Below, piece by piece: positions 50,952 to 62,063 of a stretch of 64,000 nt of DNA. The notes under the pieces were generated by a model. The model was not told the origin of the DNA. It saw nothing but the letters and a program-made list of their open reading frames with translations, and did not search any database. Each line of letters opens with the position of its first letter. Within the stretch, counting starts at the first letter, position 1. Origin of the DNA: Promethearchaeota archaeon (GTDB lineage Archaea > Asgardarchaeota > Lokiarchaeia > Sigyniarchaeales > SOKP01); NCBI GenBank assembly GCA_048940445.1, contig JBHLON010000005.1:1-64000 (forward strand), written 5' to 3'. The position numbers were made by a program, and so were the translations under genes.

Positions 50952-50985
50952 AAATTATTCAAATTTATTATTAAAAAAGAAAGTA

Positions 50986-51087
50986 CGCAGACAGAGGGAT
51001 TTGAACCCTCGAGTGCTTTCACACACCAGCTTATTAGGTAAGTGCTTCTCTCCAAGCTGGCGCCGTACCAGGCTAGGCTATGTCTGC
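50986..51087 (-). tRNA. tRNA-Ser(GGA) with an 18-nt intron at 37/38 (51032-51049)
   Basis: Acceptor GCAGACA/TGTCTGC plus G, anticodon stem CCAGC/GCTGG, long variable arm, GGTTCAAATCC; BHB helix TTGG/CTAA. Confidence 0.93.
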
Positions 51088-55354: not shown

Positions 55355-56506
55355 CTAATTTGTTTCAATATATAGCTGTTTGATTCTTTCTATTCCATTC
55401 TTTTGAATTATTAAATTAGCTACTTCTTTGGGTACTAAACTCTTCCACTCTTGATTGTTTTTATTAATCAATTCTCTAACATTAGAGCCATTATACTTTT
55501 TCTTAAAGATTGTTATTTTCTTCCCCAATTTATATCCCTTGGCCTTAAACAGTTGCCTTACCCATTCACTATTAGAATATATTATATCAAATTCCCCTAC
55601 AATAGATTTAACATGGTTAACCCATTCTTTAGCATTAAATATGTCTGGAATTTCATAAATCTTATATTTCGAGGAACTTATACTTCTTTTTTCTAGAGCG
55701 GTTCTAAGAAATTGGACTCTTTCTTTGCTAGAAAAAGGATTAGTCTTAGTATCAGAGAGTTGAGAGCTACCAATCCCTATTTTAACGAAGTTATGATTTT
55801 TATAAAGTTGATTAAGCACATATAAATGTCCATGATGCAGTGGTTGAAATCTTCCAATAAATAGAGCAATGTCTTTTTTTATAGGATTATTTTTTTGATT
55901 ATCTAACTGGAAATATTTAGTAGGGTCCAATTCAGAAATCTCTTTCCAAATTCTTTTTGAATAATCAATGTATTTTTCATTTTCTAATATATTTTTTAAT
56001 TCTGATTTATTATAAAATCTGCTTTCCTTAACGTCTAATTCTTCTGGATTAGGTTTTAATTCAATATCACATTCTACCAAGCCTAAAAAGATATACGCAA
56101 TTTCCAAGGTTTTTTCATTCGTCTCAGCATTTAGATCATAAAATTTAATTTGAATAAGCGTATTTGGGGATATTCCAAATTCTTCTTGTAATTCTCTTTT
56201 TGCATTATATGTAATATCGTTTATATCGAGATTTTTTTTGTAGATTACATGCCCTGAAGCAGAATCTGTAAAGTATTCTGGAAACTCTTTCTTTTTTTTA
56301 CTTCTTTTTTGGACAAGAAAATGAATGTCATTTGCTGGTGAAATAGCGATTATAAAGACTCGAATAATTAAGTGACTGACTTTTTTTCTGTGAGCCTCTT
56401 GTCTTTCCATAGGATAAACAAATTTTGAAATTTGACCCGAATGTAGATATTTTATATTTTTTTCATCAATGCAAGCTAAGATTTCTTTTTCCATGAGTCT
56501 AGCCAA
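55355..56506 (-). CDS. Nudix (IDI1-like) plus NMN adenylyltransferase (NadM) fusion
   Basis: N-terminal VQKRS..K...SASGHV..AKRELQEEFGI; C-terminal FIGRFQPLHHGH, GIGSSQ, NPFS..ER, NGSNVR. Confidence 0.85.
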   Translation of the reverse strand: MARLMEKEILACIDEKNIKYLHSGQISKFVYPMERQEAHRKKVSHLIIRVFIIAISPANDIHFLVQKRSKKKKEFPEYFTDSASGHVIYKKNLDINDITYNAKRELQEEFGISPNTLIQIKFYDLNAETNEKTLEIAYIFLGLVECDIELKPNPEELDVKESRFYNKSELKNILENEKYIDYSKRIWKEISELDPTKYFQLDNQKNNPIKKDIALFIGRFQPLHHGHLYVLNQLYKNHNFVKIGIGSSQLSDTKTNPFSSKERVQFLRTALEKRSISSSKYKIYEIPDIFNAKEWVNHVKSIVGEFDIIYSNSEWVRQLFKAKGYKLGKKITIFKKKYNGSNVRELINKNNQEWKSLVPKEVANLIIQKNGIERIKQLYIETN

Positions 56507-59341: not shown

Positions 59342-59520
59342 GGGCCATTAGCTCAGACTGGTTAACAAGGTTTTAAAAGCTTGGTCAAAAAGCGCAGGTC
59401 TTATAAATGACCGACGGACATACATCAAATTAAATTGTCTGTTATTAGTAAAAACCTGAGTCTCATTGTGTTTCCATCAATGAGTGAAGGAAATCCGGGG
59501 TTCAAATCCCCGATGGCCCA
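59342..59520 (+). tRNA. tRNA-Ile(UAU) with three introns: 59365-59389 (D arm), 59407-59453 (38/39), 59461-59492 (45/46)
   Basis: Acceptor GGGCCAT/ATGGCCC plus A; spliced 75-nt cloverleaf with anticodon arm CAGGT-CTTATAA-ACCTG and T arm CGGGG-TTCAAAT-CCCCG; intron helices TGGT/GTCA, TTAT/GTAA, CCTG/AAGG. Confidence 0.88.
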
Positions 59521-59531
59521 TTTTTAAAATA

Positions 59532-60212
59532 TTATTTATCTAAATTTGTTGAAATTAAGTTTAAAGTCCACTTCTTTATCTGCATAAGATTTTTTAACAA
59601 TCCTGCTACAAGATTTTCAGGAAACGGTTTTTCTTGGTCAAGATTTTGGACTATGGTCATCCACTTATTTAGGGCTAATTGTACTAGACTCGCACCATCG
59701 GCTTCCATAAATATAGGTATTACCGCAGCACTCTCTCTAGCATCCCCAATAGAGAAATAAATCTTTCTATTCATATCTTTTAACATTACTAAATTTGCGC
59801 ATTCATCCAATTTACGTTCTACTAAAATCATTTTAAGTATTTGAGTTTGAATATCTTTATTCTTTTTTATGAATTGTTCTTTTCTGTTGATTATAAGAGG
59901 TTGTATTTCCGTTACAAGTTTATCTCCAGTGGAATCCTTTGGAAAAAATTTAGTCAATTTGATTACATCGTCTAAGACTTCAATATTAATGAATTTTTTA
60001 GTGTTAGAATAAAAAATTGTTTGAAATCCTCCTTTATCTTCACTAGGAGAGAGTTTAATGAAAATATTTCTCATTGTGATTGAATTACAACAATGATATG
60101 CTAATTCGAATAATTCTTTTGAAGTTAATGGGTTATATGGTATTTGAATATCTTTGAAGAGCCATTGTGAAGATATAACATTATTAAACTGATTTAAAAG
60201 TCGATTCTCCAT
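59532..60212 (-). CDS. Hypothetical protein
   Basis: 226-aa ATG-started ORF; no family recognised. Confidence 0.6.
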   Translation of the reverse strand: MENRLLNQFNNVISSQWLFKDIQIPYNPLTSKELFELAYHCCNSITMRNIFIKLSPSEDKGGFQTIFYSNTKKFINIEVLDDVIKLTKFFPKDSTGDKLVTEIQPLIINRKEQFIKKNKDIQTQILKMILVERKLDECANLVMLKDMNRKIYFSIGDARESAAVIPIFMEADGASLVQLALNKWMTIVQNLDQEKPFPENLVAGLLKNLMQIKKWTLNLISTNLDK

Positions 60213-60308: not shown

Positions 60309-61694
60309 TTACTTCTGTACAATTTGATTATAGGCTTTTTCGAATCTATTAACAGCAAGAATTATATCCCTTGAAGTGGTACCTATAGCAGCATTCATTA
60401 TAATATAGGGAATTGTATAGTTTGAACAACAAGTTCCAAATGCACTTTTTTTAGGATTATATACTCTTGGACCAGTAACCCTTAAGTTATATAAAGCTCC
60501 TCCTAATTCTGATAACTGATCTTCTCTTAAATTTTTTAATGTCATTGCTACTGCAACTGGATTAAATACATCTAAAATTCTCTCATTTATCTTTTTAGCG
60601 ACATTCTCAATTTTTTGTTGTAATAATTTTCGATTTTTCTGTTGAGTAGTTATTAATTTCTGATATCCTTTCAGCCCCAAAGAAAGAATTGAAATCAAAA
60701 TGTTAACAATTGGAGTTGCTGAAGCGCGTCCAGCATAAGCTTGACTTATTTTGATAATCTTTTCTTTATGTGGTGAAGCAATTATCGCCCCACCAATAGG
60801 AGTAAGTACATTTTTATCAGTTGATTGAATTATCGCATCTATTCTTCCCGCATCTATTCCTGAGCGAATCAATTTCATCCATTCTGGGCTCTGAACTCCA
60901 TATGCGTTTATTACAATATGAACAAGATCATTTTCCTTGGCAAATTTACTGATTTCTTTAATATCATCATTTTCACGAGGAGGAAAGAAACTTGTAGAAG
61001 AAATAATCGCAAAGCAATCTTTATCTAATTTTAATTTAAGATTTTCAATTGGAATTCGAACAGCATCTCCAAAAATTTTACCCTCAACAATTTTTGGCTT
61101 CACACCTACTAAATCGATGCCCTTTAAAAGAGATTTATGGTCAATTTGGGGTACTAAGACTGTTCTTTTAGATATTAATGCCTTATTATTCCAATTAGGC
61201 CTTAGAGCGCTAAGACACAAAGCTAATGACATTCCAGTACATAATGGTACCACAATTGCACTTTCAATATTTGGTATACCAAATTTCCTCATAAAGTCTC
61301 GTGTTAAATAATTTGTTAATTCATACATAATAGATCCACCAGGGGCTTTTGGTTGAGGAGCTGTTAAAAACCCACTTCTACCTACACCATGACAAAAGCC
61401 TTGTGAAGTTTTAATATGTAATTTAGACGCTATCCTAGCTTCTCGTTCTCCTACTCGTGCTGCTTTAATGTCCTTATCTGTATCCATATTTGAAAGTGTT
61501 TGTAAGAGATATGCGATTTGTTCATCTGTCCAATGTTCTTTTGGAACACTTTTCTGTTCAAATAGAATTTTAATCGGTTTAAGAAATTCTTTTAATACTA
61601 ATTGTCCTCTATTCAATATATTTTCAGGAATAGATGCAGTTTTAAAATATTCAATAATTTTATTAAACTCAATCAATTTAAACACTTTTATCAT
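60309..61694 (-). CDS. spcS: O-phosphoseryl-tRNA(Sec) selenium transferase (SepSecS)
   Basis: RVGEREAR, HGVGRSG..APQPKAPG, CTGMS, DHKS, NAYG, QSTDKN, YAGRAS; adjacent to tRNA-Sec. Confidence 0.95.
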   Translation of the reverse strand: MIKVFKLIEFNKIIEYFKTASIPENILNRGQLVLKEFLKPIKILFEQKSVPKEHWTDEQIAYLLQTLSNMDTDKDIKAARVGEREARIASKLHIKTSQGFCHGVGRSGFLTAPQPKAPGGSIMYELTNYLTRDFMRKFGIPNIESAIVVPLCTGMSLALCLSALRPNWNNKALISKRTVLVPQIDHKSLLKGIDLVGVKPKIVEGKIFGDAVRIPIENLKLKLDKDCFAIISSTSFFPPRENDDIKEISKFAKENDLVHIVINAYGVQSPEWMKLIRSGIDAGRIDAIIQSTDKNVLTPIGGAIIASPHKEKIIKISQAYAGRASATPIVNILISILSLGLKGYQKLITTQQKNRKLLQQKIENVAKKINERILDVFNPVAVAMTLKNLREDQLSELGGALYNLRVTGPRVYNPKKSAFGTCCSNYTIPYIIMNAAIGTTSRDIILAVNRFEKAYNQIVQK

Positions 61695-61701
61695 AAAGAT
61701 A

Positions 61702-61858
61702 TGGCGGCCCTTGAGGAGATTTTCTAAGATTGGTTAATTTCCAACCATTATCGAACTCCTATCCCTCCGCAGGATAACTAGGTTTGAAGCCTAGCGTCAG
61801 AGACCACTTATCGTTGGAGATCGATATGATCTCAAAACAATTCCGACCGTCAAGGGCC
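61702..61858 (-). tRNA. selC: tRNA-Sec(UCA) with two introns: 61808-61841 (D arm) and 61720-61749 (T loop)
   Basis: 9-bp acceptor GGCCCTTGA/TCAAGGGCC plus GCCA, 7-bp D stem GTCGGAG-TGGT-CTCTGAC after splicing, anticodon arm CTAGG-CTTCAAA-CCTAG, long variable arm, 4-bp T stem GGAG/CTCC (9/4 fold). Confidence 0.93.
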
Positions 61859-62063
61859 ATTGAAAATTAATATGATAATTAGTTGATTTAAATTGAATTT
61901 TATTATTATACTTTATTCTTTATTTAAACTAAATTATTTACGGCAGAAATTCTATACCTCTGAAATTAACTTCGGATTTATATAATATTAATCCAATGAT
62001 TAAGTTTTTAAGTTTACTTCTTTGAGTAGTAATTATAAAAAATTAGATCAAAATCAAAATTGA

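Follow-up and report, generated by a model that had tools for sequence, protein, structure and literature searches.

How does a tRNA-Sec gene that is interrupted twice still serve selenocysteine (Sec) decoding, and by which route did its two introns arrive? Both questions are raised by a gene in a Lokiarchaeia genome (G000; assembly 93% complete), which we studied in a window, i.e., the whole analysed stretch of 64,000 nucleotides of contig JBHLON010000005.1.

Structure of the gene and its spliced product

The gene lies on the minus strand and directly precedes the gene for SepSecS. The locus comprises the following features:

61886..61901, minus strand: probable BRE/TATA promoter of the tRNA, a function predicted from the motif; the motif TTTAAAT stops 27 nt short of the gene
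61858-61702, minus strand: tRNA-Sec gene, three exons and two introns
61842..61858, minus strand: exon 1, 17 nt, with the 5' half of the acceptor and the first six D-stem bases; same as in the intron-free orthologue L018
61808..61841, minus strand: intron 1, 34 nt, D arm, between mature nucleotides 17 and 18 (about 14/15 in standard numbering)
61750..61807, minus strand: exon 2, 58 nt, D loop UGGU, 3' D strand, anticodon arm, long variable arm and 5' T arm
61787-61785, minus strand: UCA anticodon, in exon 2, with a 7-nt loop and 6-bp stem
61720..61749, minus strand: intron 2, 30 nt, T loop at 59/60; relaxed motif
61702..61719, minus strand: exon 3, 18 nt, U60, 3' T strand and 3' acceptor strand
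61705, minus strand: discriminator G (G73)
61704-61702, minus strand: encoded CCA
60309..61694, minus strand: SepSecS (O-phosphoseryl-tRNA(Sec) selenium transferase); TIGR03531, 481.9 bits (cut-off 224.85)
59532..60212, minus strand: Sel_Asgard, putative protein of the selenocysteine system, follows SepSecS in the same run; NF045535, 225.8 bits (cut-off 132)

The window gene is a real archaeal tRNA-Sec gene split by two short archaeal introns. The first-pass annotation had proposed a 34-nt intron with a helix GUCG/CGAU and cuts GA|A and AA|G, the removal of which restores a 7-bp D stem with a 4-nt loop, and all of this was confirmed in the sequence. It had also proposed that removal of a 30-nt intron gives the loop UUCGAUU and the 9/4 fold with encoded CCA, which is borne out by the fold of the 93-nt product: the 9-bp acceptor and 4-bp T stem are present once intron 2 is removed and the 7-bp D stem (loop UGGU) once intron 1 is removed, together with a 6-bp anticodon stem and a 6-bp variable stem. 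This cloverleaf is the minimum-energy fold of the spliced sequence (-44.9 kcal/mol, 55% of the ensemble), its predicted exon junctions are GGA|GUGG and CGAU|UCUC, and its features are those of archaeal tRNA-Sec described in PMC4989117.

An orthologue of the same genus (L018, genome G007), which is intron-free and also stands before SepSecS, is identical to the spliced window tRNA at 92/93 bases, so the window cloverleaf is not a product of chance; the only exon difference is a G-U in place of an A-U in the acceptor. On the Rfam model RF01852 (cut-off 47), this orthologue scores 57.7 bits. Both introns are exactly absent from 51 orthologues, intron-free and likewise 93 nt long, and all complete tRNA-Sec genes of the family splice to this length.

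Splicing, selenocysteine pathway and detection

Intron 1 can form a bulge-helix-bulge (BHB) with a 4-bp central helix, GUCG/CGAU, between two 3-nt bulges, plus an internal hairpin. The exon half of this helix consists of bases 12-15 (GUCG) of exon 1; an intron start one base earlier fits the sequence too, but only the register given here produces the 4-bp helix. Intron 1 falls short of the strict hBHBh' form: the intron helix forms (3 bp plus the hairpin), the exon helix has at most 2 bp and is missing in the constrained fold, which leads to the relaxed HBh' type. The BHB conformation lies 6.1 kcal/mol above the minimum-energy fold of the precursor (RNAfold), the D stem competing at this place. 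The same site is occupied in 46 genes, 45 of which have the full 4-bp helix, and where the exon C is replaced by U, the intron partner is A (three genomes) or a G wobble (three genomes); because the carriers are kin and thus non-independent, this conservation of pairing is supportive and is not a statistic.

For intron 2, the first-pass annotation had given a helix UUCG/AGAA. The helix is present but has only three standard pairs plus a G-A mismatch, and the motif (T stem, 3-nt bulge, three pairs plus G-A, no full 4-bp central helix) belongs to the relaxed hBH type. Among the 48 genes with an intron at this T-loop site, all four pairs form in 22, and the same pair as in the window is broken in 25. 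The closest allele to that of the window, on metagenome contig L283, has G-C at the position of the G-A.

Enzymes that could process both introns are encoded in the window genome. It has two subunits of the splicing endonuclease EndA, one with the catalytic Tyr, His and Lys, which aligns with the EndA of A. pernix across the specific loop, loop Lys included, and it has the ligase RtcB. Asgard archaea have (alpha-beta)2 EndA with an L1 loop, and such enzymes remove relaxed non-canonical introns (PMC5829648). The tRNA-Sec would be transcribed, probably together with SepSecS; a heterotetrameric (alpha-beta)2 EndA would cut each intron at its two bulges, and RtcB would join the exons. Charging of the mature tRNA would then fall to SerRS, PSTK and SepSecS, and EFSec would bring the charged tRNA to UGA codons. 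Since intron 1 uses the 5' strand of the D stem as a half-helix, the 7-bp D stem that is recognised by PSTK cannot form before excision. Double splicing is well supported by inference from motifs and enzymes, and the window gene very probably encodes a functional Lokiarchaeia tRNA-Sec with two non-canonical introns that are spliced by EndA and RtcB.

No near-identical intron was found in another tRNA of the window genome (best other match 17/18 bases, E 0.24); a transposed intron of the Thermoproteales type, or copying from another tRNA of this genome, was rejected, as no second copy turned up. No box motifs of a Box C/D guide function were seen in the introns by eye. Four other tRNAs of the genome (G000:C67:31472-31609, C2:58255-58390, C94:75476-75581 and C94:11645-11752) have T-loop inserts of 29-31 nt at the same site, and the one on C67 additionally carries an insert in the D arm and a mismatch at the helix end.

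The tRNA-Sec stands next to SepSecS in 37/37 same-genus loci with enough flank, and the promoter motif is common to most same-genus loci. A sigma-70 promoter scan was set aside as unsuited to archaea. The relatives of the window SepSecS are proteins of Promethearchaeota genomes. Its longest ORF begins 7 nt past the CCA; the true start may be a TTG at 61676, 25 nt after the CCA, which fits the start of homologues, and co-transcription with the tRNA is probable. The genome has SelD and PSTK-like and EFSec-like genes, for which the first-pass annotation had suggested a check: SelD scores over its cut-off and has an in-frame TGA in the active-site motif, the best PSTK-like match reaches 146 bits, below the curated cut-off of 290.5, and the best EFSec-like match, whose gene is on the opposite strand at a distance of 4.3 kb from the tRNA-Sec gene, reaches 233.7, below the curated cut-off of 242.25. 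Three HdrA-like genes of the genome also have an in-frame TGA. Pattern and model searches of the 93%-complete genome found a single tRNA-Sec copy. With this copy as the only tRNA-Sec found, the Sec pathway and the UGA-containing genes support the further proposal that Sec decoding here would depend on double splicing. A separate gene of the window (55355-56506, minus strand) encodes a Nudix/IPP-isomerase-like domain fused to an NMN adenylyltransferase domain.

The gene is easily overlooked. ARAGORN in default mode reported nothing over the window, and at a lowered threshold it gave hundreds of false calls. On RF01852, the unspliced gene obtained 23.6 bits (cut-off 47) as a partial, misaligned match; among the scored family genes, 38/38 intron-free genes passed the model, 2/19 with one visible intron and 0/32 with two introns. 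The suspected risk of false "no tRNA-Sec" calls is thus real for Rfam as well as for ARAGORN. Secmarker found the three-intron tRNA-Sec genes of Atabeyarchaeia (PMC11291895) at scores of 46.6 and 36.3 (minimum score 35). Because about half of the family tRNA-Sec genes fall below the Rfam cut-off owing to their introns, calls of Sec absence in Asgard archaea need an intron-aware search.

Intron distribution and origin of the window allele

Among about 120 tRNA-Sec genes of the family, 51 are intron-free, 34 combine D-arm and T-loop introns, 16 have only the D-arm intron, 11 have an anticodon-loop and a T-loop intron, three only the T-loop and two only the anticodon-loop intron, and seven are cut by contig ends (two genes were read by eye, and a few genomes are counted twice in this tally). 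Single introns in relatives include the D intron in G036 and G126 and the T intron in G149. Ten same-genus genomes (L033-L038, L050, L055, L056, L068) carry an anticodon-loop intron of 27-28 nt and a T-loop intron and lack the D intron, which makes the anticodon loop a third intron site in the tRNA-Sec of the family. Six genes (L142, L143, L148, L151, L158, L163; genomes G114, G150, G090, G100, G080) have a D-arm intron of 32 nt that is placed one base upstream of the window site and forms a 4-bp helix of its own; it might be an independent gain or a slid intron. In the single-contig genome G114, the neighbourhood EFSec-tRNA-Sec-SepSecS occurs twice (G114:C1; L268, L269; at about 778 kb and 1145 kb), and one of the SepSecS ORFs stops after 128 aa and is followed by unrelated genes. 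In G118, where the regular SepSecS locus is intron-free, a second tRNA-Sec with two introns and an upstream sequence of the carrier type lies by an hdr/mvh-like cluster at a contig end (L267:9840-9995; G118:C42), and may represent either an ectopic copy or a contamination.

Species relationships were taken from rpoB only; SepSecS was dropped as a species marker, as the SepSecS of G017 groups with another genus. In the rpoB tree, G000 is sister to G019 (support 93/80), then to G017, and the trio is sister to a clade of six genomes. G019, the closest relative of the window genome, is intron-free and shows nine exon differences, and its 50 nt upstream are 94% identical; G017, the third member, has the two-intron allele with an identical D intron. 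The metagenome contig L283 matches the window gene at 153/157 bases, introns included, with flanks at background level, and its SepSecS is 74% identical to that of the window and closest to another genus. At 70-75% SepSecS identity, T introns are typically about 59% identical and reach at least 90% in 2/389 pairs, versus 93% for window and L283.

The cleanest case is G063, which lies inside a group of five intron-free relatives sharing one allele and promoter. It was compared with one intron-free genome, G029 (rpoB 99.4% identical, both flanks 93-96% identical), and between these flanks about 75 nt upstream plus the gene are exchanged, a promoter-plus-gene patch of about 230 bp that contains the two-intron allele and four exon changes. 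The replaced upstream piece is mostly 66-90% identical over 50 nt (range 58-98%; background median 58%) to that of two-intron carriers of other genera. The same arrangement recurs in two JGI assemblies (L284, L286). In three further pairs (G105 vs G101, G148 vs G149, G077 vs G126), the intron state is coupled to neighbouring exon bases. On the rpoB tree, two-intron and intron-free states require seven changes, among genomes picked for contrast; an AU test shows only that G000, G017 and G063 are not one clade, this group having been chosen post hoc from the tree.

This pattern likely reflects repeated lateral replacement, either through recombination with the conserved tRNA as its anchor or through a gene-carrying element that integrated and was then lost imprecisely. 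For the window, we consider it likely that both introns came together, when a foreign tRNA-Sec allele replaced the intron-free resident gene by recombination. We do not put it higher because G017 also has the allele and branch support is moderate. For the family as a whole, the comparisons lead us to favour, with some reserve, a scenario in which intron-bearing alleles pass sideways from one genus to another in tiny cassettes, each made up of the gene and, at times, 50-90 nt of promoter. Such a cassette would take the place of the resident gene and import its own linked exon bases, and the window gene would be one such case. No exact match to the allele was found among the viruses of IMG/VR, although a viral carrier may exist, and no obvious element was seen beside the tRNA at the two-copy or gapped loci (G094, G097, G114, G118, G133, G113, G136, G143), as judged from ORF starts at loci most of which are contig breaks.

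The introns could instead be ancient in the family, inherited vertically by the window genome and repeatedly lost in relatives by a precise mechanism that copies the mature tRNA. At least seven genera of the family do have D and T introns, G017, which adjoins G000 on the rpoB tree, has the identical D intron, and D introns can evolve slowly, being the same in G033 and G062 at 84% rpoB identity. Moreover, losses appear to occur too, since the intron-free G007 agrees in its exons with the two-intron sisters G033 and G062 and looks like a precise double loss. Such a loss, however, would keep the exon bases, whereas at positions 14, 15, 68 and 78 G019, G029, G101 and G126 have other bases than their intron-bearing sisters, and these linked bases match those of other intron-free genes. 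The nested position of G063 and the similarity of the window and L283 T introns, far beyond what is usual at such a distance, also speak against vertical inheritance, which we regard as rather unlikely for the window gene.

The mismatch between allele and flanks might also be a chimera of metagenome assembly, formed at the conserved tRNA exons, and assemblies do break at the tRNA-Sec in G133, G113, G143, G136 and G106. A double switch, however, needs long shared words, and the outer exons are only 17 and 18 nt long and differ between the alleles; furthermore, one of the two JGI recurrences of the G063 arrangement is 98% identical and hence another contig, so that a chimera is quite improbable. 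Even less credible is that the window gene is a pseudogene, or retains inserts that are not removed, with a second tRNA-Sec in the unassembled part of the genome. The incomplete assembly, the imperfect T-loop helix and the example of G118, where the copy beside SepSecS is intron-free and another one, elsewhere, has two introns, would allow for it. Yet the window gene occupies the orthologous position upstream of SepSecS with every stem intact, the broken pair recurs in about half of the T introns, and about half of the family genes carry introns at these sites in the only copy found.

Other loci bear on exchange as well. At L010 (G017:C23), SepSecS goes with another genus and rpoB with the window genome, i.e., a larger swap that includes SepSecS. 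The window further contains a tRNA-Ile (UAU anticodon; 59342-59520, plus strand) that holds about three inserts and was missed by ARAGORN; its body resembles those of G022 and G129, while G063 and G029 have another body and other introns at the same locus, and for this reason it may also have been swapped. A tRNA-Ser with a short insert near the anticodon (50983-51087, minus strand) was seen by whole-genome ARAGORN with introns allowed.

Relation to known tRNA introns and significance

A Lokiarchaeota tRNA-Sec with a 31-nt T-loop intron has been described (Mariotti et al. 2016, PMC4989117; Santesmasses et al. 2017, PMC5330540), and in a 2022 review (PMC9499178) this T-arm case was still the only one for archaea. 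The window gene resembles it in lineage, 9/4 fold, 7-bp D stem with 4-nt loop, G discriminator, a T-loop intron of about 30 nt and an EFSec gene a few kb upstream on the opposite strand, but adds a D-arm intron and directly precedes SepSecS, whereas in that case SecS is on a separate contig. Three-intron tRNA-Sec genes were reported from Atabeyarchaeia-1 and -2 (Valentin-Alvarado et al. 2024, PMC11291895, Supplementary Data 4; positions not given). They are likewise multi-intron tRNA-Sec genes of Asgard archaea, found via Secmarker, with no intron called by tRNAscan-SE; however, they belong to another class, and for the window the two introns have exact positions and intron-free sisters. A two-intron tRNA-Sec alone is therefore a modest variant of known biology, as T-loop and multi-intron tRNA-Sec genes are already published; what appears to be new, judging from the gene and rpoB comparisons, is that the allele does not follow the species tree.

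Hidden D-arm introns with frequent recent gains are widespread in Asgard tRNAs (Goswami et al. 2026, bioRxiv 10.64898/2026.10.13.758758), and, as in the window gene, they are D-arm inserts at BHB motifs that annotators miss; the focal families of that study are different ones (Freyr-, Jordi- and Atabeyarchaeaceae). Its authors tested three routes, namely copying from tRNA to tRNA, mobile elements and reverse transcription, and left open how the introns arrive; its text contains none of the words horizontal, lateral, recombination and gene conversion. For the tRNA-Thr(GGU) of Caldiarchaeum subterraneum, intron gain via an integrating element was proposed (Sugahara et al. 2012, PMC3293823), and there, too, close relatives differ by a tRNA intron from recombination with a foreign intron-bearing tRNA sequence. 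In that case, however, a 1.8-kb insert and a tRNA fragment remain, whereas the swap described here is a clean one that covers both introns, at times with the promoter, and crosses genera, with no element found. A literature search, outside of which most subscription papers lay, retrieved no paper that describes a D-arm intron in the tRNA-Sec of Lokiarchaeia or an exchange of alleles across genera.

Sec decoding in this archaeon would depend on a splicing endonuclease of broad specificity, and intron 1 is predicted to block the D stem that is read by PSTK. Near-identical genome pairs that differ by a whole intron-bearing allele make the arrival of archaeal tRNA introns directly testable; they point to lateral allele replacement and hint at how such introns spread. 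If true, spread by cassettes is a route of tRNA intron gain that was not tested in Goswami et al. 2026, and it may apply to other tRNAs.
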